A DNA stretch of 64,000 nucleotides, from contig CADAXK010000008.1 in NCBI GenBank assembly GCA_902791865.1, forward strand, positions 9,198-73,197, in the 5' to 3' direction. The translations under genes and the position numbers were made by a program. Shown one piece after another: positions 52,348 to 62,260 of the stretch. Numbering within the stretch: position 1 is the first letter of the stretch; every line of letters starts with the position of its first letter. This DNA comes from an uncultured Bacteroidia bacterium. GTDB lineage: Bacteria > Bacteroidota > Bacteroidia > Bacteroidales > ML635J-15. The notes beneath the pieces were generated by a model. That model was not told the origin of the DNA. It ran no database searches and saw only the letters and a program-made list of their open reading frames with translations.

Positions 52348-52437
52348 GGAGAAATGGCAGAGTGGTCGAATGCGGCGGTCTTGAAAACCGTTGAACTCGC
52401 GAGGGTTCCGGGGGTTCGAATCCCTCTTTCTCCGCCA
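52348..52437 (+). tRNA. tRNA-Ser (anticodon TGA), CCA encoded
   Basis: Acceptor stem GGAGAAA / TTTCTCC, anticodon loop CTTGAAA, a long variable arm and the T-loop GGTTCGAATCC. Confidence 0.9.
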
Positions 52438-52475
52438 CTGAGGCGGCAAGCAGACAAATAAGTTTGACCTCGCAA

Positions 52476-52562
52476 GGAGAGATGCCAGAGTGGTCGAATG
52501 GGGCGGTCTCGAAAACCGTTGTACTCTTTCGAGTACCGGGGGTTCGAATCCCTTTCTCTCCG
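52476..52562 (+). tRNA. tRNA-Ser (anticodon CGA)
   Basis: Acceptor stem GGAGAGA / TCTCTCC, anticodon loop CTCGAAA, a long variable arm and the T-loop GGTTCGAATCC. Confidence 0.9.
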
Positions 52563-52687
52563 CAAAAAGCGTTTAAATGTCAGAAAGCCAGACGGTTGTT
52601 TGGCTTTCTTGCAAAAATGCGCCAAAATTGAGCTAGCAGATATTTTTCTTTTCGAGTTGAAAAACAAGAAAGGAAAATAAAAAAAAA

Positions 52688-53809
52688 ATGTTGCCATTCA
52701 TCAATTTTAAACCAGCAGAACTAAAAGAGACAAATACGGAAACATACGTTTCCTACTATGTTGAGAATCCATTCCAGGATGATAAGCTAGTCAGGCAGAG
52801 AATTAGGTTGAACCACATCAAGAACCGAGCAGAACGGCTGAGGTATGGCCGTAAGCTGGCGTATGAGATTAACCTGAAGCTGTATAAGGGCTGGAATCCG
52901 TTTCTGGAGAAAAGCAAGGTAGGTATGAAGCGAATTTCGGATGCAATAGACGAGTTTCTGAAGGAAAGTGACAGGCATTTGCGTCTCGATAGCAGCCGAA
53001 CCTATCATTCGTACTGCAAGCAGTTCAAAGAGTTCCTGAAGGAAAACGATCTGTGCGACAGTTATGTGTTCAACCTGAAAAAGTCGGATGCTCGTGACTT
53101 TGCTGCCTACATCGAGGAAAAGAAGAATCTCACTTCCCGGACATTCAACAACTATATGCGTATGATGAGAACGTTATGGTTGTGGCTCATCGATCACGAA
53201 TACACCAGGGAAAACATATTCGAGTGCATAAGGAAGCGGCGTGTCGATACTAAGAACAGGATCGTAATACTGCCCGCTGACCGCAAGAAGATTATGGACT
53301 ATCTGGAATCGACTGGACAACACGGGTTCTGCCTGATGTGCCAGTTTACCTTCCTGATGCTGATTAGGCCAAAGGAGTGCCTGCAGCTGCGAGTATGCGA
53401 CATTGACCTCGATGGACGTTTCCTAAGTATTCCAGCTTCCGTAGCGAAGAATCACAAGGAGCGGACTCTTGCATTGCCTGACAAACTGGTGGAACTTCTG
53501 CAGGAGCATTGCAAGGGTGCCTTGCCTACGGATTTTATTTTTTCGGAAGGCTATGAGTGCGGCAATGTGCAGAAGAATACGCGCGACTCTGGACGTACTT
53601 GGGGGAACATGCGCAAGGTCTTGGATTTGCCGAAGGAGTACCAATTCTACAGTCTGAAGGACACCGCTATTTCGGAAATGCTGGAAGCCGGTGTGCCTGC
53701 TAAGCTCGTGCAGGAACTTGCCGATCATGCCGACCTGTCGATGACACAGAAGTACGTTCACCGCAGCGATGCGCGGAAGATCCTGGCATACGACCGTCCC
53801 GACTTTTAG
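52688..53809 (+). CDS. Tyrosine-type site-specific integrase (Bacteroidetes type)
   Basis: An N-terminal arm-binding-like region and a SAM-like core. The C-terminal catalytic region is ...RPKECLQLR...YSLKDTAISEML..G.......LADHADLSMTQKYVH (R...H-x-x-R-like...Y). Confidence 0.85.
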   Translation: MLPFINFKPAELKETNTETYVSYYVENPFQDDKLVRQRIRLNHIKNRAERLRYGRKLAYEINLKLYKGWNPFLEKSKVGMKRISDAIDEFLKESDRHLRLDSSRTYHSYCKQFKEFLKENDLCDSYVFNLKKSDARDFAAYIEEKKNLTSRTFNNYMRMMRTLWLWLIDHEYTRENIFECIRKRRVDTKNRIVILPADRKKIMDYLESTGQHGFCLMCQFTFLMLIRPKECLQLRVCDIDLDGRFLSIPASVAKNHKERTLALPDKLVELLQEHCKGALPTDFIFSEGYECGNVQKNTRDSGRTWGNMRKVLDLPKEYQFYSLKDTAISEMLEAGVPAKLVQELADHADLSMTQKYVHRSDARKILAYDRPDF

Positions 53810-54078
53810 AAATCCTGCTTTTCGGTGCTGATTTCCATGTTGCCCTTGCGGAATGTGACGGCGCGACCGGAATGGATGATGCCATAGACGGCGTAGAGGG
53901 TGGGGAAGGCGAAGATTTCACCGACCGCCGCCAGAACAGAACCGTCGATGATTCCGCGTGGCGGCACGATGAACGATACCACTACCAGCACCGCCGAAAG
54001 CACCAGCGACACCCAGAACACCACCTTCCAGTGGCGGTCACCAGCGACTATGCAATCCTTCAGCTCCTGTTGGCTCAT
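53806..54078 (-). CDS. Small two-TM membrane protein (holin-like candidate)
   Basis: 90 aa with two hydrophobic helices (VVFWVSLVLSAVLVVVSFIV and LAAVGEIFAFPTLYAVYGII) and a charged C-terminus. Its stop overlaps the integrase stop in a convergent arrangement. Confidence 0.6.
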   Translation of the reverse strand: MSQQELKDCIVAGDRHWKVVFWVSLVLSAVLVVVSFIVPPRGIIDGSVLAAVGEIFAFPTLYAVYGIIHSGRAVTFRKGNMEISTEKQDF

Positions 54079-54383
54079 AACTCAAGCACTCCAGAATTAT
54101 TGAGGTATTCATATATCTGTCTCACAGCAGTATAAGTACCTTCTGATGCAGGTGAAAGGCCAAGATGGTTGTTCACTGTATCTATGTGCAATTTTGCCGT
54201 AGTATTATCACCGGCTTCAATGCAACAGCAGGCAAGGTTTAGCAGTGCATTAATACGGTCGAGTTTAGCAACTGTTATGGTATCGCCGCACTTCAGTTTA
54301 TTGTTTTCTGTGTCTAATAATACAGGTCTAAGTGCCATTTTATTTATTTTTTTATTGGTTAAACATTTTTTATTAGTATTCAA
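54075..54383 (-). CDS. Hypothetical protein
   Basis: ORF in the operon. An alternative start is at 54338 (MALRPVLLD). It has a 4-nt overlap with the downstream gene. Confidence 0.55.
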   Translation of the reverse strand: MNTNKKCLTNKKINKMALRPVLLDTENNKLKCGDTITVAKLDRINALLNLACCCIEAGDNTTAKLHIDTVNNHLGLSPASEGTYTAVRQIYEYLNNSGVLEL

Positions 54384-54963
54384 TTCCTTTCACCTTAGCC
54401 CAGTTCTGCCAGTTGCCGGTGGCAAGGTCGGTCATCACGACGCCATAGCGGTGTCCCTTGGCCTCGATGACTTTTCCGTGTCCGGCATATACGCCTACAT
54501 GTCCGCTCTTGTGTACAGTAAGGCCTGGGATTTCGGGAATGGTGGCGATGGTCCCGCTCTCGATGGCGGTTGCCAGTATTGCATCGGCGGTGGTGTCGGG
54601 AAAGCCGTTGCTGCCAGGAACGACCTTGCCGTTCCTTGTGCCGTCGCTCCACATGTATGCCTCGACAAGGCCCGCGCAGTCGTGGACGCGCTGCCCGAGT
54701 TGTTGCTCGGCATCGGCATAGTCGGCACTGCCATATACATTGGGATACTGCCTACGCTTTTGCTCAAGCAGTTCTTGCGTGGCAGTTTGCCCGCTAGTCC
54801 CCCACCAGTAAGGACGGCCAAGCTGCGAGCGTGCATAGCGTACAAGTCCGCGACCAGTCTTTTTCCTGCCGTTATGCCTGCGCACAATGGCAAAAACCGT
54901 TGCGGTAACCACACAAGTCACCGCAACGGAAACTATTAGTATTATGGCGGACTTACGATCCAT
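54373..54963 (-). CDS. NlpC/P60 cell-wall endopeptidase with an N-terminal TM anchor
   Basis: LGRPYWWGTSG, catalytic Cys in HDCAGLV and His in GHVGVY. The N-terminal anchor is SAIILIVSVAVTCVVTATVFAIV. Start at MDRKS. Confidence 0.8.
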   Translation of the reverse strand: MDRKSAIILIVSVAVTCVVTATVFAIVRRHNGRKKTGRGLVRYARSQLGRPYWWGTSGQTATQELLEQKRRQYPNVYGSADYADAEQQLGQRVHDCAGLVEAYMWSDGTRNGKVVPGSNGFPDTTADAILATAIESGTIATIPEIPGLTVHKSGHVGVYAGHGKVIEAKGHRYGVVMTDLATGNWQNWAKVKGIEY

Positions 54964-54965
54964 GG

Positions 54966-55589
54966 TTATGATTGTTGATCCCACAATAAACTCACGGAAT
55001 CATCATCACCTATCACAACGGTTCCCCAACCACCTTTAGGAGCCCACACTCTAAAATAGATGGCTGAGTCATCTGCGAGGCACATAGATGATGAAATAGC
55101 TTCTCCAGCCTGTCCCAGTAAAAACATAGTGACAGGAGTACTGCCAATTTGCCCTACAAGTTCTCCAAATGGCAAATCGCATTCATATACCCAGGCTTCT
55201 TGTCCTGCATCATATTCCACGCGGACTTCGTAACCCAATCCCTTTTTTGTACTTTCCACAGAACCATCTGAAAGTATAGTAACCTTTATAATTTCGCCAT
55301 CAATTAGATAGCGGTATGTCACTTTTACTTCAGCGGGGTCTGGATCTCCATGGGAAATACTGTCAGCAGTAGTTAGTATAAGATCTCCTTCTGCAGATTG
55401 AAGGAATACAGGTGTTCCTGCGGAGATATAATCGTTTATCTCACAGGCATTCATGTCGCATGTAAGATCGCCGGAAACCATGTCCACTATCAAATGTGCA
55501 ACTATAGTGCCAGCGGATGGCTGTGCATCGGGGGCTACAATTTTCCCTGTTTCCGCATTAAGGTACAGCGGTTTTAAATTCTCGTTCAT
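54966..55589 (-). CDS. Hypothetical acidic soluble protein (possible virion or spike component)
   Basis: 207 aa with no TM, acidic and rich in beta-type sequence. No motif recognised. Confidence 0.55.
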   Translation of the reverse strand: MNENLKPLYLNAETGKIVAPDAQPSAGTIVAHLIVDMVSGDLTCDMNACEINDYISAGTPVFLQSAEGDLILTTADSISHGDPDPAEVKVTYRYLIDGEIIKVTILSDGSVESTKKGLGYEVRVEYDAGQEAWVYECDLPFGELVGQIGSTPVTMFLLGQAGEAISSSMCLADDSAIYFRVWAPKGGWGTVVIGDDDSVSLLWDQQS

Positions 55590-55643
55590 AGTCCTAAAAA
55601 TTTAAGTTGTTATTTCTTTGTTTTTGATTTCGGTTTAGATTTT

Positions 55644-56168
55644 TTAGTTACTTTTGCGGCGGATTTCTTGTCGCTCGCGCCAAGACGGGGACTTTTGCCA
55701 CCACGCGCGCCGCTTTGCGGTGAAAACGATAGGCGAGGACAAGAAATCTTTTTTTTCTACTTCTGAATAGAAAGATTTTAATATATATCCCGATTTAATT
55801 ATCTTCAAGCTAGTTATGACCGTTTTGCCACCCGAGGTCCTTTTCCATTTATAGCAAATATGATTCTTGTCGTTTATAACAATGTCGCCAAACTGTACCG
55901 TATCACAAATTGACAGTATGTCGAATGCTGAAACATTTCCAGTCCTTCCGTGGAAGTGCTTCAGCAGTATATGCTGAGACCCTTCCTGTGGTCGGTCTGG
56001 AAAAATCTGAAACTTCACAGTATTACCGTTTTTATCAGTTACGGTAAATAAGACAGGCTTGCCAGATGTGCGTACAAATGTATCGTACACGCGCTGTTGC
56101 TGACCGGTAAGGACTGCCTCGCCAATTTCCTTCTTAAATTGCTTTATCTTGTCGTCAATGGTCGCCAT
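55644..56168 (-). CDS. Homolog of the SSB-associated QH[IV]L[LI]xH protein, with a basic C-terminal extension
   Basis: MATIDDKIKQFKKEIGEAVLTGQQQRVYDTF...GSQHILLKHFHGRTGNVSAFDIL...LKSFYSE aligns along its length with 42347-42763. Confidence 0.7.
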   Translation of the reverse strand: MATIDDKIKQFKKEIGEAVLTGQQQRVYDTFVRTSGKPVLFTVTDKNGNTVKFQIFPDRPQEGSQHILLKHFHGRTGNVSAFDILSICDTVQFGDIVINDKNHICYKWKRTSGGKTVITSLKIIKSGYILKSFYSEVEKKDFLSSPIVFTAKRRAWWQKSPSWRERQEIRRKSN

Positions 56169-56171
56169 GCT

Positions 56172-56264
56172 CTAACCTTTAGTTCGTTTCACAATAATCC
56201 ATACCGTCACGGCCAGAACTATCGTCACTGCTAGTATCCCCGTAGCTGTCAGCCATTTTTTTTT
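56172..56264 (-). other. -1-frame extension encoding a TM anchor, reachable from the glucosaminidase frame through an A9 slippery run
   Basis: The mRNA reads AGC GTA AAA AAA AAT GGC TGA in the zero frame. The -1 frame reads CGT AAA AAA AAA TGG CTG... = RKKKWLTATGILAVTIVLAVTVWIIVKRTKG, stopping 3 nt before the next gene's ATG. No in-frame start codon precedes the TM segment. Confidence 0.55.
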
Positions 56265-56758
56265 ACGCTCCAGATCTTGTCGTATTGACGCAGACCGTTG
56301 GCGTTGATTATTGAAACAATCTTGCCTACATAGTCGGGATCGGTTGCGTAGCCGGCTTCCCACATCAGGCGTATCTGTTCGTCGGGCGTGGCAGCCTTCA
56401 GCGCAGCTGCGTACCTAGGCGCACGGGAGAGCATGGCGTTGCGGTCGCGGAGGCTGTCGGACATGGAGCGGTACACGCGAAAGTTGTCGCGGTAGCTTTC
56501 GTTCCAGCCGCCGTCGAGATATTCCGACGTGCGGAGGTTCACGCTGCGGTCGACCTTCGGGTCCCACGCGCTGGAGAACCTGACGGCGGAAGCCTTCACA
56601 CCGAAGTAGTTGTTGTACTTCTTCGACAGTCCACTTTCGCCCCATCCGCTTTCTAGCGCGGCCTGTGCTATCATTACCGACGGGAACAGTCCGTGGAAGT
56701 CGGGCTGCTGCCTTATTGCCTCCACCATTTGCCGTATGAATTCCTGCTTGTCTGCCAT
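56249..56758 (-). CDS. Mannosyl-glycoprotein endo-beta-N-acetylglucosaminidase (FlgJ-type glucosaminidase domain)
   Basis: PSVMIAQAALESGWGESGLSKKYNNYFGVKA is the hallmark of the glucosaminidase family. The zero-frame stop lies just after an A9 run. Confidence 0.8.
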   Translation of the reverse strand: MADKQEFIRQMVEAIRQQPDFHGLFPSVMIAQAALESGWGESGLSKKYNNYFGVKASAVRFSSAWDPKVDRSVNLRTSEYLDGGWNESYRDNFRVYRSMSDSLRDRNAMLSRAPRYAAALKAATPDEQIRLMWEAGYATDPDYVGKIVSIINANGLRQYDKIWSVKKNG

Positions 56759-56803
56759 GATGTTCTTGTTTTAGTTTCTACGCTTCTGGATCGGTTTTGT
56801 TAT

Positions 56804-57259
56804 TTAGGCGGTAGCCGGAACGCTTTCAAGTACATACTGGAATGAAGGGGCCGTCCTCTGGATGAGGTCCAAAATCTGTTTTGCAACAGTCCAATTGCCT
56901 GCATGATTGCTGATGGCGGTTAGAGTCTTCGGTCCTATAAGTCCGTCAACAGCCAGATTTTCTTGCGCCCTTGCATTGAAAAACTCCTGCAATAGTTTCA
57001 CATTATTTTTATTCTTGAAATTGATGCATTTCTCCTGATCGTTAACTTTTATCTTGTAGTAGGAGTAGCCTGTCCATGCACCGACATTAATAGGGAATCT
57101 GGTACCCTGCAACACGCCGGCCAGTCCGCCATTGTCGGAATTTGGGGTAGTTCCGCCGTTGTCGTCGTTGCCGTTCTTGCGGCGGAACACGAAATATGCC
57201 GCAACGGCGACAGCCACCACGAGCAAGATCACGATAATTATTATGCCATTGTTTTTCAT
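56804..57259 (-). CDS. Membrane-anchored protein with a peptidoglycan-binding (PG_binding_1-like) domain
   Basis: N-terminal TM IIIIVILLVVAVAVAAYFVF. LLQEFFNARAQENLAVDGLIGPKTLTAI resembles the PGB1 repeat. Confidence 0.6.
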   Translation of the reverse strand: MKNNGIIIIVILLVVAVAVAAYFVFRRKNGNDDNGGTTPNSDNGGLAGVLQGTRFPINVGAWTGYSYYKIKVNDQEKCINFKNKNNVKLLQEFFNARAQENLAVDGLIGPKTLTAISNHAGNWTVAKQILDLIQRTAPSFQYVLESVPATA

Positions 57260-57292
57260 ATACCTATTAATTATTAGTTGTTAGTTTAAGTG

Positions 57293-57823
57293 TTATCTGT
57301 CGCTGGCAGGTACACCTATTTCTGTCAGGTGTTCCTTGATGCACCCAAATACATAAGCATCGTTGGAATCGTCACCAAAGGAATCCCACCAGCTGCCTTT
57401 CTCTTCAAATTCTGCCTTTATGTCATCCCACATATCAGAATGAAACTCTTCCTGGTACGAAGCTTTTACAAGAAAGTAGTCGGCTGCAGTAGGAATTGAT
57501 CTGACTGCGCTCAACATCTTTTCCTCGTCGGTACCCCAGCCCCCTAGCACAGCGTACTGGTTTGTAGTCCCAGCTTCTGTCATTGCCATCCTAATCTGCT
57601 GTGCAACGCTCTTGATTTGCACCGATGTGAGCTGTGACGGAGCGCCTCCTGCATTCTGTAACGCATTGGCACGTTCCACAAATTCATTTATTTTTTCCTG
57701 GTCATCCTTTTTCTTCTTGTGCTTCTTGCCGAAATGCACAGCCACGATGATCAGCACGATAATTACAATGGCAACCACAGCCACCGTTATCCATTGCTTT
57801 TTGCTAAGTTCCGGAATTTTCAT
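57293..57823 (-). CDS. Membrane-anchored protein with a single annexin-like repeat
   Basis: N-terminal TM WITVAVVAIVIIVLIIVAV. GGWGTDEEKMLSAVRSIPTAADYFLVKASYQEEFHSDMWDDIKAEF resembles the annexin repeat (G-x-G-T-D-E..L......R......I...Y.......L..DI). Confidence 0.55.
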   Translation of the reverse strand: MKIPELSKKQWITVAVVAIVIIVLIIVAVHFGKKHKKKKDDQEKINEFVERANALQNAGGAPSQLTSVQIKSVAQQIRMAMTEAGTTNQYAVLGGWGTDEEKMLSAVRSIPTAADYFLVKASYQEEFHSDMWDDIKAEFEEKGSWWDSFGDDSNDAYVFGCIKEHLTEIGVPASDR

Positions 57824-57825
57824 AG

Positions 57826-58158
57826 CTACGATCTCCCTATTATTCTCGCGTTATTGCTCAAAGATGTTGCTCCAGCAATTGGCTTTTCTTCTAATGTTAT
57901 CTGAGATACAGGCTTTGGCTCTTTTACGACTGGCCTCGGTTCTTTTACGACAGGTTTAGGCTGACGGTTGCTGCCGTCATTGATGGAAACCCTATCTCCA
58001 TTGCAGTCATCTTGTGTTTCAGAACCGTTTCCCGTGGCGCTGGGTCTAGTGTTTCCGTAAACCAAGCTGGGATCTTTTCTACTTCTACAGAAGAACCACC
58101 ATACTGCTACTGCGGCAACCACAGCCACGATAATCCATATCAATGTTTTGTATTTCAT
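57826..58158 (-). CDS. Small N-terminally anchored membrane protein with a KPVVKEP tandem repeat
   Basis: TM LIWIIVAVVAAVAVWWFF, and the repeat PKPVVKEPRPVVKEPKPV. Confidence 0.6.
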   Translation of the reverse strand: MKYKTLIWIIVAVVAAVAVWWFFCRSRKDPSLVYGNTRPSATGNGSETQDDCNGDRVSINDGSNRQPKPVVKEPRPVVKEPKPVSQITLEEKPIAGATSLSNNARIIGRS

Positions 58159-58159
58159 A

Positions 58160-58324
58160 CTACTTAAGTTTCTTTGTCAATATTATTCCACCAAGCACCA
58201 CAAGCACTACCGCTGCCAGTATCGGATAGAGCGTATCCTTTTCGACGCGTACTGACACAGGAACATCGGTGTTGCCTGCAATGAGATTGTTTACATTTCC
58301 TAACAATTCACTGAACTTATCCAT
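58160..58324 (-). CDS. Small tail-anchored membrane protein (54 aa)
   Basis: Start at MDKFSELLGN, which avoids overlap with the upstream gene. The C-terminal TM is LYPILAAVVLVVLGGIILT. Confidence 0.55.
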   Translation of the reverse strand: MDKFSELLGNVNNLIAGNTDVPVSVRVEKDTLYPILAAVVLVVLGGIILTKKLK

Positions 58325-58356
58325 AATTGAAAGTTTTTGAGTCGAGAGTTTTTTTT

Positions 58357-58776
58357 TTACAAGGGGCTGTCGAATGTGCGCTGATAAGCTTCTTCCCACT
58401 CGTCCTCGGTGATGCCGTGGTTCTTTATCGCTTGAGCCTGTGTTGCGCTGATGACCCGGCGGTTAGAATCGCCACGGAGGTGACTGCCGTCGGTACACCA
58501 CGATATGAAGTTCGGGAAGGTTGTGCTTCTTGCAGCAGCTGGCGTATATCCGCCATCGGAAAAGTCATCTGCCTGTCCGCGCACCCATAGAACATATTGC
58601 CAGAATGTTCGCACATGGTTTATCTGCTTGGCATCAAAAGTCTTGATAATCCATTCCACATTTTCGGAATTAGCATTACCCTTCTTGGATTTCTCCTTGC
58701 GGAAGAACATGAAATATGCAGCAACCACAATGATGACCGCTACAATTACTATTAATAATCTCTTATCCTTAAACAT
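58357..58776 (-). CDS. N-terminally anchored membrane protein (139 aa)
   Basis: TM LLIVIVAVIIVVAAYFMFF. No motif recognised. Confidence 0.6.
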   Translation of the reverse strand: MFKDKRLLIVIVAVIIVVAAYFMFFRKEKSKKGNANSENVEWIIKTFDAKQINHVRTFWQYVLWVRGQADDFSDGGYTPAAARSTTFPNFISWCTDGSHLRGDSNRRVISATQAQAIKNHGITEDEWEEAYQRTFDSPL

Positions 58777-58792
58777 AATAAATTCTTTATTA

Positions 58793-59329
58793 TCACTTAC
58801 CTATAAAATCTCTGCCGTCAGAATTAAGCAAATCTTTGAACTTATGACCTTGATTGGCTTTGCTGTTCCAATGGTCGCGCGCATATCCGATGAATGCATA
58901 CACAGTTACATGCTCCAATATGGACTGGCGCACACTTTCGGTAATGGCTCCGTTTGTTGCCTTGTCCCTGAGTGCAGCTTCAAACGCTTCTTCTGTATTT
59001 CTATCTCGGCCATCATACCATCCTGCAGTGTTGAGGATATTTGCAACATCGACATCAGCTATCATGTCGTGTACCCACTGCTTTTGAGTTTCGATATGCG
59101 ACGAAGGTCGCACAGCATTCAACTCACGTCTCTTGTCGTCGCTCCAACCTCCTCCCGAAGAACTGTTGCCACCCGACGAACCGCCAGACGAGCCACTCGA
59201 CGAACCGCCAAGCAATTTGCTCTTGCTGGTACCGGCATCATCTCCACTGTCATTTTTCTTGTACATCATATAAAGCACCAGCACAACCGCCAGAGCCACA
59301 AGTACCCAAGTCAATGTATTCTTGTTCAT
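58793..59329 (-). CDS. N-terminally anchored membrane protein with a Gly/Ser linker (178 aa)
   Basis: TM LTWVLVALAVVLVLYMMY, then GGSSSGSSGGSSGGNSSSGGG, then a globular C-terminal part. Confidence 0.6.
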   Translation of the reverse strand: MNKNTLTWVLVALAVVLVLYMMYKKNDSGDDAGTSKSKLLGGSSSGSSGGSSGGNSSSGGGWSDDKRRELNAVRPSSHIETQKQWVHDMIADVDVANILNTAGWYDGRDRNTEEAFEAALRDKATNGAITESVRQSILEHVTVYAFIGYARDHWNSKANQGHKFKDLLNSDGRDFIGK

Positions 59330-59333
59330 TTCG

Positions 59334-59579
59334 TTATCCCTTTATGTTAATAACCACTACCACAACTGCAATTGCCACTATTGCCAGCTTTATGATGTCG
59401 GAGTCGTCGTCGGCTTCCAGCTTCGAGAGCCTTTCCGACATCTCGGCATCGAGAAGTGCCAGGCGTTCGTTCTGGTCGAGCTGCTCCATGTTGTACTGGT
59501 ACAACAGTTCGGCATTGTACATCTCCTGTGTCCTCTTAGGGTTAAAGAACGCCGTAAATTTTCCCCAGAAATCTTTCAC
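59334..59579 (-). CDS. Small tail-anchored membrane protein (81 aa)
   Basis: An acidic coiled segment followed by the C-terminal TM IIKLAIVAIAVVVVVI. It has a 4-nt overlap with the upstream gene. Confidence 0.6.
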   Translation of the reverse strand: MKDFWGKFTAFFNPKRTQEMYNAELLYQYNMEQLDQNERLALLDAEMSERLSKLEADDDSDIIKLAIVAIAVVVVVINIKG

Positions 59580-59812
59580 GCCTTTGCCCTCTTGATAAAT
59601 ATCACACCAACAATAAGTACGACAACCACGAATACAATACCAAGCACAAGCGTCCTAGTCCTGCCGGCACTTGCTTCGTATGCGGCGCGGTCGCTTTCGC
59701 TTTGCATAAGCATCTCGAACTTCCCCTTGCCGAAAAGCCGGAGTTCAACCAGGTTGAGGAAATCGGCGAATGTACCGTCGTCCCTGTATCTTTGCGAACT
59801 GTATGTCACCAT
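59576..59812 (-). CDS. Small tail-anchored membrane protein (78 aa)
   Basis: C-terminal TM LVLGIVFVVVVLIVGVIFI. Confidence 0.6.
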   Translation of the reverse strand: MVTYSSQRYRDDGTFADFLNLVELRLFGKGKFEMLMQSESDRAAYEASAGRTRTLVLGIVFVVVVLIVGVIFIKRAKA

Positions 59813-59816
59813 ATTG

Positions 59817-60020
59817 CTAAGACTTTATAAGCACTATCATTACCACTACCAGAACAACGACGATTGCTGCGCCTTCGGCCACACTGGATGCCACAAGCAG
59901 GTTGCTCCTGCTTCTCGCCGTCTCCACCGTCCTTTCGGTGCGCTGTTGCCCGCTTTCTGAAACGAAGCCGAACAAGCCCTTGACAACGCCTGCAACCGCG
60001 CCTATTATCGCCTCTGCCAT
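59817..60020 (-). CDS. Small membrane protein (67 aa)
   Basis: N-terminal hydrophobic or amphipathic segment AIIGAVAGVVKGLFGFV and C-terminal TM AAIVVVLVVVMIVLI. Confidence 0.6.
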   Translation of the reverse strand: MAEAIIGAVAGVVKGLFGFVSESGQQRTERTVETARSRSNLLVASSVAEGAAIVVVLVVVMIVLIKS

Positions 60021-60021
60021 G

Positions 60022-60654
60022 CTACTTGTTCAGTTTTACCAACAGTATCACGATGATTGCGCAGAGCAGAATGTTTGTCATAGCTGCGCGATGCTGCCTT
60101 ACATTGAAGAACACCACTGGCTGCTGCTTCTGGATGTGGTTCTGCGGAGTGTTGCCACCACCGAGCATGTCGCCACCATTGCCGTTGTTGTTTTCACCAG
60201 GATTTTCAATACCTTCACCTGTACCGCCATCAATGCGTCTTGAGCCATTGAACGGCTGCTTTCTTTGCTTTGTAATTACGTTCATTTTCAATATATTTAA
60301 TTCGTTAATAGCTTTTTCGTTTCTGTTTTCCTTCGCATCGATGCGCAGAGCTGCACGGTATAGGCTTTCGAGCCGGGCAGGACTGATGAACGGGATGGAA
60401 CCGATTTGCCTTACCACTGTCTTTAGCGACTGCGGGAATGTTCCGTACATGCGCCTGATGGCGTACTCGTCGGCCTTTTCCTCGCTGTCGGTCTGCAGCC
60501 GGTAGTGACCTTCCTCGTGCAGCAGCATGAACCGCTGCTGGATGTCGGTGTAGCCGTCCCATACGGAGCGGTTTACGCTGACAGTGCCGGTGGCCATGTC
60601 AACTTCAGCCGGACACGCACCCATCTGCGCCGATGTGAGGTACTGGATTTTCAT
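60022..60654 (-). CDS. Putative minimal zinc metallopeptidase (HEEGH) with a low-complexity linker and a C-terminal TM
   Basis: FMLLHEEGHYRL is an HExxH motif. It also has a GGTGEGIENPGENNNGNGGDMLGGGN linker and the C-terminal TM ILLCAIIVILLV. Confidence 0.6.
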   Translation of the reverse strand: MKIQYLTSAQMGACPAEVDMATGTVSVNRSVWDGYTDIQQRFMLLHEEGHYRLQTDSEEKADEYAIRRMYGTFPQSLKTVVRQIGSIPFISPARLESLYRAALRIDAKENRNEKAINELNILKMNVITKQRKQPFNGSRRIDGGTGEGIENPGENNNGNGGDMLGGGNTPQNHIQKQQPVVFFNVRQHRAAMTNILLCAIIVILLVKLNK

Positions 60655-60658
60655 CTTC

Positions 60659-60802
60659 CTACAGTTTGCCCTTGAGGTTCTTTCCAGCTTCCTTAATGCA
60701 GGTCGTCCACTTCTTTCTTGGGTTGGCCTTCTGTATCTTCTTGGCCTCGCCTGTAATCTTGCGGCCCATTGCCGCCAGTTCCTTCTTGGTCTTTGTTGCC
60801 AT
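60659..60802 (-). CDS. 47-aa highly basic protein (candidate nucleic-acid-binding or condensing protein)
   Basis: Below the track's length cut-off. I translated it as MATKTKKELAAMGRKITGEAKKIQKANPRKKWTTCIKEAGKNLKGKL (15 K/R, 4 E). Its stop lies 4 nt before the next ATG. Confidence 0.5.
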   Translation of the reverse strand: MATKTKKELAAMGRKITGEAKKIQKANPRKKWTTCIKEAGKNLKGKL

Positions 60803-60940
60803 TTTTCAATTAAATTTTTGTTGTGTTAAAAATTATTTCTATTTTTGCCTCTGAAAACAAGTCAGTTTACAGATATAAGAGGCTAGGGCTCTAATCTATA
60901 AATTGGCTTGTTTTCGTTTTTTGAAAGTCTCATAGAGTTT

Positions 60941-61285
60941 TTATTTTCTCAGTGCAATCACGAATATGAGCATCATCGCCATTATTCCGCCTACGATGCC
61001 AATCCACGCGCCAGTGGACAAACCACCGCTGCGCTGATAGATGTCGTAGTCGTAGTTTTCCTTGCGGTTCCATGCCGATATGCCAAGTCCTATGCTGCCG
61101 AATATGTTCGCCAGTCCGCTTAGCCAGTCGGATGCACTGGTTTTGTTTGAACTGCCAGTATTGGTGCTGGAACCACTGTCTGTATTGTAGTAATAACTGC
61201 CGTTTTCCATTGGCGGTCCAACAAAGTCGTCACCGTCAGCCTTTCTTTTGGGCATTCCGAGTATATGTGTATTGTTATTCTTCAT
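60941..61285 (-). CDS. Tail-anchored membrane protein (114 aa from the internal Met)
   Basis: Start at MKNNNTHILG. It has an S/T/G/N-rich middle and the C-terminal TM AWIGIVGGIMAMMLIFVIAL. Confidence 0.55.
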   Translation of the reverse strand: MKNNNTHILGMPKRKADGDDFVGPPMENGSYYYNTDSGSSTNTGSSNKTSASDWLSGLANIFGSIGLGISAWNRKENYDYDIYQRSGGLSTGAWIGIVGGIMAMMLIFVIALRK

Positions 61286-61312
61286 CGCCGTTGGATTTAA
61301 GGTTTTACAAAT

Positions 61313-61339
61313 CGTCCGCCAACGGAAGGCTGGCGGACG
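61313..61339 (-). terminator. 9-bp stem-loop just downstream of the capsid-candidate gene (attenuator or mRNA-stabilising hairpin candidate)
   Basis: CGTCCGCCA / TGGCGGACG arms with a 9-nt loop, followed on the minus strand by ATTTGTAAAA (weak U tract). Confidence 0.4.
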
Positions 61340-61375
61340 GATAATACCCACGCATCCACCTGCATCACGCGCCAC

Positions 61376-62023
61376 CTAGAAGCGGAGGGTGAACGTCATG
61401 GTGGTGTTTGCTGGAACGTTTACGACCCACAAAAGGGTGTCGTTGATGATCATGTTGTCGTTCTCGAAGTCGATGTCGATCTTGTCGTCGTTCTCCTGGA
61501 AACGCGAATAGAACTTGTTGAGTTCAATGGTTTCTGGGGTTACCTTCTTGAACGGGTTCAAGTGCGAAACCTCCATGTCACCGTCGTAAGCGTCGGTGTT
61601 GGTCGCCTTAATGGTCATCGATCGGAGGATAACCTCGTTGGTCTTTACGAAATCGAGGAAGTCACGGATGCGGCGTTCGCTGTTGGTCGCCTGTACTGCA
61701 ATGTTAGCGTCGGACATGTCGTCGTCGATGATACGGTCGATGGAATAGCCGGCAGCAACGAGTGCCGCGGTGTTGTGATGATGCGCAACTATGCTGACTT
61801 CCTTGGTATTGTCGTCGAATGTGGCGGCCATGCCTAACGTGTCGAAATAAGCAGGTACTATGGCCACGCGGAGAGCCTGTCCGCCTGCTGCGTTCTTGTT
61901 CTGAATTGAAAACTGGATCTTGTTACCCAATGCTCCAGATGCCTTTGATACTTCTAATGACATATTTCCTGTGAATTTGTTTGTTAATAATCTCGTTTTT
62001 CTAAAAATTTTCTGTTTTTCCAT
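61376..62023 (-). CDS. Beta-rich soluble protein, candidate major structural (jelly-roll capsid?) protein
   Basis: 215 aa (195 aa from the internal MSLEV start) with no TM and an alternating beta-strand-like sequence ending ...NTTMTFTLRF. It is among the largest of the few TM-less products in the operon. The fold assignment is inference only. Confidence 0.35.
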   Translation of the reverse strand: MEKQKIFRKTRLLTNKFTGNMSLEVSKASGALGNKIQFSIQNKNAAGGQALRVAIVPAYFDTLGMAATFDDNTKEVSIVAHHHNTAALVAAGYSIDRIIDDDMSDANIAVQATNSERRIRDFLDFVKTNEVILRSMTIKATNTDAYDGDMEVSHLNPFKKVTPETIELNKFYSRFQENDDKIDIDFENDNMIINDTLLWVVNVPANTTMTFTLRF

Positions 62024-62193
62024 TACTCTTCAGGTGTGTCGGTTGTGGTGGTTGTGTCGGGTTTGTTGTCGCCGTTCTTGTCGGTTGGCGGAAGTGTCGG
62101 CTTGCCGCGCAATGCGAAGTACATCGCAAGTCCTGCTACCACTACGCAGATAACCACGAAGAGTGCCAGATGGTCGTTGATAAATTTCTTCAT
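62023..62193 (-). CDS. 56-aa membrane protein, first gene of the operon
   Basis: Below the track cut-off. I translated it as MKKFINDHLALFVVICVVVAGLAMYFALRGKPTLPPTDKNGDNKPDTTTTTDTPEE. Its TAA overlaps the ATG of the next gene (TAATG). Confidence 0.55.
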   Translation of the reverse strand: MKKFINDHLALFVVICVVVAGLAMYFALRGKPTLPPTDKNGDNKPDTTTTTDTPEE

Positions 62194-62260
62194 TGTCCTA
62201 AAAATTAAAAGTTACACGCTCGCAAAATTGATGACAATGAAAATGGCGATGTCCCGTTTA

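Follow-up and report, generated by a model that had tools for sequence, protein, structure and literature searches.

The locus considered here raises the question of whether a homopolymeric run at the end of a cell-wall hydrolase gene can decide if the enzyme is made as a free or as a membrane-anchored protein. The gene, a GH73 glucosaminidase, lies in a 64,000-nucleotide stretch of contig CADAXK010000008.1 from an uncultured Bacteroidia bacterium (this whole stretch is called the window below), and it carries a run of nine adenines (A9) two codons before its stop, with the -1 frame across the same run continuing into a transmembrane (TM) helix. A first-pass annotation proposed that the helix is fused to the enzyme by a -1 frameshift, by transcriptional slippage or by a phase-variable insertion or deletion (indel) in the run. 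Comparison of the locus with its relatives makes functional recoding at A9, which would yield the fused form, the probable explanation of this architecture.

The zero-frame gene (56758..56249 on the minus strand, as given by the listing of open reading frames (ORFs) and its translation) encodes 169 amino acids (aa), ends in WSVKKNG and a stop, and has the 3' end AGC GTA AAA AAA AAT GGC TGA. Its product matches PF01832 (Glucosaminidase/GH73) with 110.9 bits against a cutoff of 30.2 (E=8e-32) and with residues 17-155 covered, and among the PHROGs it matches endolysin families best (E=3e-49). Residue E36 lies within an AQxALES.WG motif and is invariant across the clade alignment, and we take it to be the catalytic residue of the GH73 motif A-Q-A-x-L-E-S-G-W-G. 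A signal peptide, a TM helix and a hydrophobic segment were looked for in the 169-aa protein and none was found, and the product of standard decoding is predicted to be a soluble isoform.

The A9 run occupies 56264..56256 (minus strand), presents A_AAA_AAA in the zero frame and KKK in the tail frame, and is followed two codons later by the zero-frame stop TGA (56251..56249, minus strand), which sits within a conserved CTGAC(A/G)GC that reads L-T-A in the tail frame. In the -1 frame the same stretch is read as CGT AAA AAA AAA TGG CTG ACA..., which translates as RKKKWLTATGILAVTIVLAVTVWIIVKRTKG and gives RKKK-WLTATGILAVTIVLAVTVWIIVKRTKG across the run. The tail WLTATGILAVTIVLAVTVWIIVKRTKG with its TAG stop (56255..56172 on the minus strand by translation, the TAG at 56174..56172) has a hydrophobic core at about 56252..56190 that is followed by the basic tail KRTKG and has a Kyte-Doolittle (KD) 17-mer score of 2.79, and it takes the form of a single TM helix with basic residues on both flanks. 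The predicted product with the shift is 195 aa long. The next operon gene (56168..55644, minus strand, 174 aa, no function assigned) begins at ATG 56168, 3 nt from the tail TAG, and is in the frame of the tail, and in two related loci, L014 and L002, the tail stop is likewise followed closely by the ATG of the next gene; without the shift, 80 nt (56248..56169) would be noncoding. Readthrough into this next gene was considered and rejected, as the common frame found in the window is not found in L002 or L003 and is a coincidence.

On re-reading, everything that the first-pass annotation had stated about the sequence (the end of the gene, the run, the -1 reading, the stop, the next ATG and the 80-nt gap) is confirmed, and the A_AAA_AAA that it described as an X_XXY_YYZ heptamer is present in the zero frame, as GT[A AAA AAA]AT. 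The A9 run by itself is not rare, with 6 matches against 5.6 expected in this window of 43% GC, and the case rests on the position of the run and on its conservation.

Frame state in the clade and the wider family

In the following, WIN denotes the window locus, L-numbers denote related DNA loci, and P-numbers denote homologous proteins. The clade DNA set comprises 19 loci including the window, at 67-100% aa identity and from many samples, and all 19 have A9 or A10 with the TM helix in -1. Cluster 1 (WIN, L014, L001 and L183-L188) and cluster 2 (L002 and L189-L191) carry A9, and cluster 3 (L003 and L192-L195) carries A10-G-A5, with the TM helix in -1 in each of them. A homologue search that used the conceptual 195-aa fusion as query against 5.8 billion clustered proteins returned 5,863 homologues. 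The three closest 90%-identity clusters contain 43, 7 and 7 member sequences, with 29 listed members on about 100 contigs that are drawn from NCBI, ENA, Logan and JGI, and the members are named as proteins of Bacteroidales metagenome-assembled genomes. The zero-frame stop is identical in every cluster member inspected, with length variants differing at the N-terminus only, and among the matches of this fused-protein search of the 5.8 billion clustered proteins, none at 67% identity or above has the tail in frame. The window clade is fixed for the out-of-frame state. The first-pass annotation had named a comparison of orthologues as one check on its proposal, with a closed or nonhydrophobic -1 frame, or a plain assembly error, as the results that would speak against it; what we find is that the 18 further clade loci and the two isolates described next all retain the run, with a -1 frame that is open, hydrophobic and evolving as coding sequence, and that the out-of-frame state is uniform on the approximately 100 contigs.

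The same layout is present in two cultured isolates. In the case of Mucilaginibacter terrenus (L180), the junction reads ATT-A9-GCC-TAA and the -1 frame is KKSLITWVIALAIAVVIIYLVFED, bounded by a stop on either side, and in Pedobacter sp. 22226 (L181) it reads GT-A9-GGCATAA and the -1 frame is RKKKGITVIVVVLAAILATYIIYRTVKK, bounded in the same manner. In both, the stop directly 5' of the run closes the tail frame and there is no start codon, and these isolate layouts, with the frame closed and no start, exclude both an artefact of metagenome assembly and a tail that is translated from its own start. A homopolymer sequencing or assembly error, by which the true run would be A10 and the gene a single 195-aa ORF, is extremely improbable. 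Indels are notoriously miscalled in homopolymers, and a fused ORF would look ordinary beside the in-frame relatives, but the same call is made in independent NCBI, ENA, Logan and JGI assemblies and in the two isolate genomes, and relatives with in-frame A10 or A11 runs are called consistently, P0013 on 12 contigs. Random errors would scatter both ways within clusters, whereas the state is uniform and stands 20:1 for -1, and the run of cluster 3 differs (A10-G-A5), yet needs the same -1 shift.

Many of the relatives at 40-58% identity, with lengths of 180-216 aa, have an in-frame TM helix and basic tail after the same junction, which consists of YD, a short linker and KKK. The -1 tails align with the in-frame TM tails of P0006, P0004, P0011 and P0013, as can be seen with RLTAALVSVAAVLLVAVVVFIIVK of L002 and RLAVIIPLAVAVALLVAVVVLIIK of P0006, and the TM anchor is ancestral in this family. 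The in-frame relatives also keep the run, with GAT-A11-T in P0013 (12 contigs), G-A11-GTC in P0011 and CTT-A10-TC in P0010. A run of at least eight adenines lies near the junction in 30 non-redundant loci. Of these, 20-21 encode the TM helix in -1 and 6-7 encode it in frame 0, and a single one (L029) has it in +1; L043 was scored +1 too, but its run sits C-terminally, after an in-frame TM helix, and it is not counted as a true +1. The -1 excess among run-bearing loci is in the direction that an insertion of one A or a -1 shift would serve. Of the 120 closest cluster representatives, about 27 are in frame and 44 end no more than 5 residues from the K-tract; if recoding is real, these 44 have been annotated as proteins truncated after KKK, with their TM tails left as "intergenic".

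A different arrangement of the junction is seen in a termite-gut clade (L016, L017, L019, L021, L024, L027, L028, L038, L045 and L046), in which A10 precedes TTATGA or a similar sequence and the TM ORF is in -1. This TM ORF starts with an ATG just past the run, which in most members overlaps the zero-frame stop (ATGA). The termite-clade member L029 has A9 where its relatives have A10, placing its tail in +1. The tail of the termite-gut clade could be fused by slippage or separately translated. For the window, a tail made as a separate holin-like small membrane protein, from a noncanonical or internal start or by termination-reinitiation, is highly improbable. The ATG past the run that overlaps the stop (ATGA) in the termite-gut clade, L068 and L030 is a classic coupling layout, many in-frame relatives share a Met after KKK, and the transmembrane domains (TMDs) of M4Lys-type endolysins resemble holin helices (PMC7143992); against this, no ATG, GTG or TTG lies between the upstream stop and the helix in the window clade, L042, L092, L180 and L181, and in L002, L180 and L181 a stop just 5' of the run closes the tail frame.

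The absence of a nearby start for the TM segment, which the first-pass annotation had also pointed out, holds when candidate starts are considered individually. GTGs inside the helix give at most 18 aa in the window, and a 63-aa overlapping ORF from GTG 56363 is not conserved, since the frame is closed beside the run in L002, L180 and L181; both are judged implausible. A third-frame ORF, MADSYGDTSSDDSSGRDGMDYCETN (56256..56179), was likewise rejected as a gene, having no ATG in clusters 2 and 3, and this third frame is open because the TM frame uses NTN codons, and codons ending in T, as read there, cannot be stops.

A further group of relatives at 46-48% identity (L018, L020, L023, L026 and L034, and also L033, L039 and L094) has neither A-run nor TM tail. 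These A-run-less relatives have an overlapping downstream lipoprotein gene, which encodes a signal peptide with an LTGC or FAGC lipobox, and this spanin-like layout suggests that the same problem has been solved in another way.

The coexistence of frame states in the family raises the possibility of DNA-level phase variation, in which replication would gain or lose an A, cells would switch between soluble-only (A9) and anchored-only (A10) states, and assemblies would record the majority. Long A runs are hypermutable (PMC1088944), the wider family includes genotypes in frame (A10/A11) as well as genotypes out of frame (A9/A10), the most similar two of which are about 90% identical, and one termite-clade contig has A9 against A10 in its relatives. 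We nevertheless consider this explanation unlikely, in that no in-frame allele is found in the 19 DNA loci, in the inspected cluster members (about 100 contigs) or in the fused-protein search, and the state tracks phylogeny with no variation within clusters, polymorphism being seen only between lineages at most 90% identical elsewhere in the family. With the off state so dominant, an intact tail over 67-92% divergence requires expression from the A9 genotype. Contingency genes are recognized by run-length polymorphism among close relatives with ON and OFF alleles, whereas the assembled sequences of this clade are uniformly A9, with A10 in cluster 3. For lineages elsewhere in the family, phase variation could still account for the changes of state.

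Constraint on the tail and the homopolymer

The -1 tail is under coding constraint. Three indels, of 3, 6 and 3 nt, separate the tails of WIN and L002, and the cluster 3 tail has one 3-nt indel. The changes GCA to GCG and CTG to TTG are synonymous in the tail frame only, and the other single changes among close relatives are swaps between A and V. In the case of L184, a 169-aa zero-frame protein that is the same as that of L183 and L185-L188 is followed by another tail allele (WLTAVGIVATMVIVALAIFVLTKRFKG), which differs at 32 of 84 nt (38%) without any indel and ends at the same stop; the second codon positions are the ones that have changed least. The L184 tail has a hydrophobicity score of 3.0, and the zero frame there holds 4-7 stops; when substitutions are placed at random at the density seen in L184, the frame stays open and TM-like in only 6% of trials.

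This pattern bears on the explanation that an ancestral 1-nt deletion lost the anchor, so that the TM-like stretch would be an untranslated remnant or spacer and only the 169-aa enzyme would be made, which we regard as very unlikely. It is true that the catalytic domain is complete in the zero frame, and that L018, L020, L023 and L034 are without a TM helix and have a separate lipoprotein gene instead, indicating that the anchor is not obligatory. A remnant, however, should gain stops and indels that are not multiples of three, whereas all indels here are multiples of three, with the same stop beside the next ATG, and hydrophobicity survives 38% nucleotide divergence. The run is also unbroken in genes that otherwise prefer AAG and whose synonymous sites are saturated, and the same layout is present in independent lineages, including the two isolates.

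When L184 (1930..2100) is set beside L183 and L185-L188, the tail has the appearance of an exchangeable mosaic module with breakpoints at the A-run and at the tail stop codon, and the homopolymer may double as a recombination junction. Nucleotide-level constraint was considered as the cause of the high tail identity among WIN, L014 and L001 and was rejected, as mosaic exchange of tail alleles fits better, L184 being diverged.

The run itself is selected at the nucleotide level. Outside the tract, the lysine codons of the clade are 5 AAA to 34 AAG (13% AAA), and inside it every lineage uses AAA only. Over the whole family, the codons of the tract are 92 AAA to 5 AAG against a background of 173:129 (57% AAA), with P=5e-17. 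Four-fold degenerate sites are 38-57% identical between clade members, which is near saturation, and the run must therefore have been maintained against mutation. Slippage-prone A/T runs are about 9 or more nucleotides long in many bacteria (PMC1088944), and the run is A9 in the window and A9-A11 in relatives. Two further features expected of a slippage site are also present, namely a run conserved beyond codon usage and an alternative-frame extension that is coding-like and without a start of its own.

Proposed recoding inside the run

Since the tail must be expressed from the A9 genotype, recoding would have to take place inside the run. In most expression events, standard decoding would give the soluble 169-aa GH73 enzyme, which stops two codons past the run, and in a fraction of events the frame would move by -1 within the run. 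The likely cause would be RNA polymerase slipping on the T9 template, which would place one extra A in the mRNA (A10), though a ribosomal -1 shift on A_AAA_AAA would give an identical 195-aa protein. This 195-aa isoform would contain the same catalytic domain followed by KKK, the single TM helix and the basic tail KRTKG, and one gene would provide a free majority and a membrane-tethered minority of the enzyme, at a ratio set by the run. What the sequences establish is the architecture, its fixation in the clade, the coding constraint on the -1 tail and the selection on the homopolymer at the nucleotide level; from these we infer that slippage takes place in these bacteria, how efficient it would be, and the roles of the two forms that are taken up below.

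Within functional recoding, transcriptional slippage is the favored route, and a ribosomal shift is the less likely of the two, though a serious candidate. The runs of A9-A11 exceed the heptamer, and it is the homopolymer that is conserved, not a cassette of X_XXY_YYZ plus stimulator. Bacterial -1 programmed ribosomal frameshifting (PRF) cassettes have a stem-loop or pseudoknot about 5-9 nt downstream and/or a Shine-Dalgarno (SD)-like element. In the 70 nt past the run there is no conserved structure, with folds that differ by lineage (z -2.3 to +1.3); the only window hairpin begins about 30 nt downstream of the run, and L002, L003, L180 and L181 lack the GGAG that precedes the run in the window. 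An Rfam search gave no match. Slippage is favored by this lack of a conserved stimulator and of an Rfam match, and also by the weakness of A_AAA_AAA as a ribosomal shifter in E. coli when compared with A_AAA_AAG (PMC5009743). It is favored further by the retention of the run in both in-frame and out-of-frame homologues, as in the tssM1/tssM3 pair discussed below. The ribosome, for instance by sliding on poly(A) (PMC4363877), may also make a contribution. Of the three mechanisms put forward in the first-pass annotation, the comparison supports the two that are recoding, with the evidence leaning toward RNA polymerase slippage over a ribosomal shift, and DNA-level phase variation is disfavored in a clade with no in-frame allele.

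Several considerations weigh against recoding by slippage. The wider family flips between in-frame (A10/A11) and out-of-frame runs among relatives as close as about 90% identity, which a hypermutable DNA tract would produce as well, and the ATG just past the run in the termite-gut clade, L068 and L030 makes a separate small TM protein possible there. Proneness to slippage is organism-dependent (PMC1088944), and its application to Bacteroidota RNA polymerase on A9 is an extrapolation. Finally, the fused form has a 165-aa N-terminal domain without a signal peptide, and this domain would have to cross the membrane to reach peptidoglycan.

The mobile element and comparison with known systems

The window is chromosomal DNA of Bacteroidota type, with a type IX secretion system (T9SS) sorting domain and housekeeping genes, and the glucosaminidase gene lies in a mobile element integrated there. 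Two tRNA-Ser genes (52348..52563) and a tyrosine integrase gene (52688..53809) border the operon described next, and a SocA/Panacea antitoxin-domain gene (63399..63914) lies within the element region 52348..64000. The tightly packed operon, which runs from 62023 to 53806 on the minus strand, encodes about 18 small proteins and contains three wall-hydrolase-like genes, namely the GH73 glucosaminidase, a PG_binding_3-like gene and an NlpC/P60-like gene with an N-terminal TM helix. Nearly all of the small proteins have one N-terminal or one C-terminal TM helix, and the C-terminal anchors close with short basic tails (...IFIKRAKA, ...VVINIKG and ...ILTKKLK), a style that is matched by the end of the -1 tail, ...VWIIVKRTKG. 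The first-pass annotation had argued that a fused form would fit an operon in which other enzymes are membrane-anchored, and this is borne out by the NlpC/P60-like and PG_binding_3-like genes and by most of the small operon proteins, which have one N- or C-terminal TM helix. A small ORF (58324..58160, minus strand, 54 aa, ATG 58324) that is C-terminally anchored and ends in ...GGIILTKKLK looks like a missed gene. A second homopolymer in the operon, A10 at 58358..58349 (minus strand), was rejected as a recoding site, as it begins at the TAA of ORF 58776..58357 and the next ORF has its own ATG.

No capsid, terminase, portal or tail genes are found among the element matches in PHROG and Pfam scans of the window and of the isolate elements, and for the isolate elements these scans yielded nothing beyond a sub-threshold Zot/AAA-like ATPase and an M78-like match. 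A beta-rich 195-aa protein of the window (61963..61376) is a capsid candidate with just 3 close homologues, a poor AlphaFold model (pLDDT 52) and a weak best BFVD match (E=1e-3, TM 0.39). The element could be tailless, membrane-containing and phage-like. A DNA search against deposited phages gave no match, and a protein search of deposited phages gave only GH73 domains from Firmicutes phages at 37% identity or less; H6 (MT838530), considered as a full-length phage match, is in fact a 526-aa glucosaminidase-M23 fusion in an ArdC-type context. Single-protein searches of species-representative genomes and of IMG/VR found no close relatives.

An HExxH (metalloprotease-like) protein with a C-terminal TM anchor is found in the window element (60022..60654, minus strand), in the prophage-like regions of the Mucilaginibacter (L180, 3055..3525) and Pedobacter (L181, 3127..3360) isolates, and in L043 and L030, and this common protein suggests one element family across Bacteroidales and Sphingobacteriales. 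In the isolates, a second wall hydrolase directly follows the slippery gene, which is another GH73 in Mucilaginibacter (L180, 6563..7090) and a Phage_lysozyme in Pedobacter (L181, 6578..7042). The cargo 3' of the hydrolase block varies, with MuF_C and LPD3 polyvalent-protein domains in L001 (2965..4452) and a reverse transcriptase (RVT_1) in L003 (6105..6564).

A full-text literature search found no report that ties slippage or frameshifting to an endolysin membrane anchor. Recoding at poly-A runs is well known, and an anchor supplied by recoding on such cell-wall enzymes has apparently not yet been described. A close bacterial comparator is the tssM pair. The tssM1 gene of C. rodentium has an out-of-frame A11 on which 20-25% slippage gives the long form, and tssM3 of Y. 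pseudotuberculosis is in frame and slippage gives the short form (PMC4256274). As in tssM1 and tssM3, the glucosaminidase gene has an A run just before a premature stop and would give truncated and C-terminally extended forms from one gene, and in both cases homologues exist in in-frame and out-of-frame configurations. The differences are that tssM1 has A11, and that its extension is a large periplasmic domain of a type VI secretion system (T6SS) membrane protein in place of the TM anchor here. Slippage in tssM is experimentally proven and rare among tssM genes, whereas the glucosaminidase site is widespread and known from sequence alone.

Thermus thermophilus dnaX, with A9, and Shigella mxiE are further cases of slippage (PMC1088944). 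In dnaX, an A9 (Thermus) or an A-rich heptamer (A_AAA_AAG, -1 PRF in E. coli) likewise has a stop close behind it and gives two products in a fixed ratio (PMC1088944, PMC5009743), and the two dnaX genes reach the same outcome by polymerase slippage or by a ribosomal shift. In contrast with the glucosaminidase gene, the recoded dnaX product is the shorter one, and the E. coli site requires an SD-like element and a downstream hairpin. For the recoding field, the glucosaminidase genes would offer a handle on slippage by Bacteroidota RNA polymerase at A9-A11, with natural in-frame and out-of-frame variants as controls.

The predicted fused form can also be compared with endolysins that have a C-terminal TMD, of which M4Lys of Salmonella phage BSPM4 (PMC7143992), the Enc34 endolysin (PMC8943055) and LysAP of phage AP1 (PMC8879335) are examples. 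The conceptual 195-aa product and the in-frame relatives have the same layout as M4Lys, Enc34 and LysAP, with an N-terminal hydrolase, one C-terminal TM helix, a charged tail, which is basic in the fused form, and no signal peptide. These three endolysins are encoded in one frame, have other catalytic domains and belong to Proteobacteria hosts, and the likeness is one of architecture, not of homology. M4Lys without its TMD retains activity on peptidoglycan but is unable to lyse the cell that makes it, and full-length M4Lys lyses without holin or Sec (PMC7143992). By analogy, the anchored glucosaminidase would probably reach or act at the membrane and wall, with the soluble form depending on other membrane proteins of the element. 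Slippage could keep a dangerous anchored form rare or delayed, and for phage lysis the run length could then set the ratio of a harmless soluble endolysin to an anchored one that is self-exporting or self-lysing; alternatively, a membrane-bound copy, possibly bound to a virion membrane, could exist beside the free endolysin.

A more far-reaching idea, which we hold to be rather doubtful, is that poly-A acts as a family-wide evolvable rheostat in an uncharacterised group of small integrated Bacteroidota elements. These elements have many single-pass membrane proteins and no recognisable tail, portal or terminase genes, and so might be internal-membrane phages without a tail. A lineage would switch back and forth between an in-frame genotype, from which mostly the anchored form is made, and a -1 genotype, from which mostly the soluble form is made, with slippage securing both isoforms; the anchored form would be a membrane or virion-membrane lysin for entry or holin-independent lysis, the soluble form would be a classical endolysin, and a slippage-limited anchored minority would time lysis or limit toxicity.

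The closest functional logic is that of Ebola virus GP, where slippage on an A-run likewise chooses between a soluble and a transmembrane product, the unedited transcripts (about 70%) giving the soluble protein and those with one added A (about 25%) the transmembrane protein (PMC5009743). The Ebola virus case differs in involving a viral RNA-dependent RNA polymerase, a shorter run, a eukaryotic virus and an unrelated glycoprotein. If recoding at the glucosaminidase run is real, it would be a widespread bacterial or phage case of homopolymer slippage that decides between a soluble and a membrane-anchored enzyme, a logic so far best known from Ebola virus GP.

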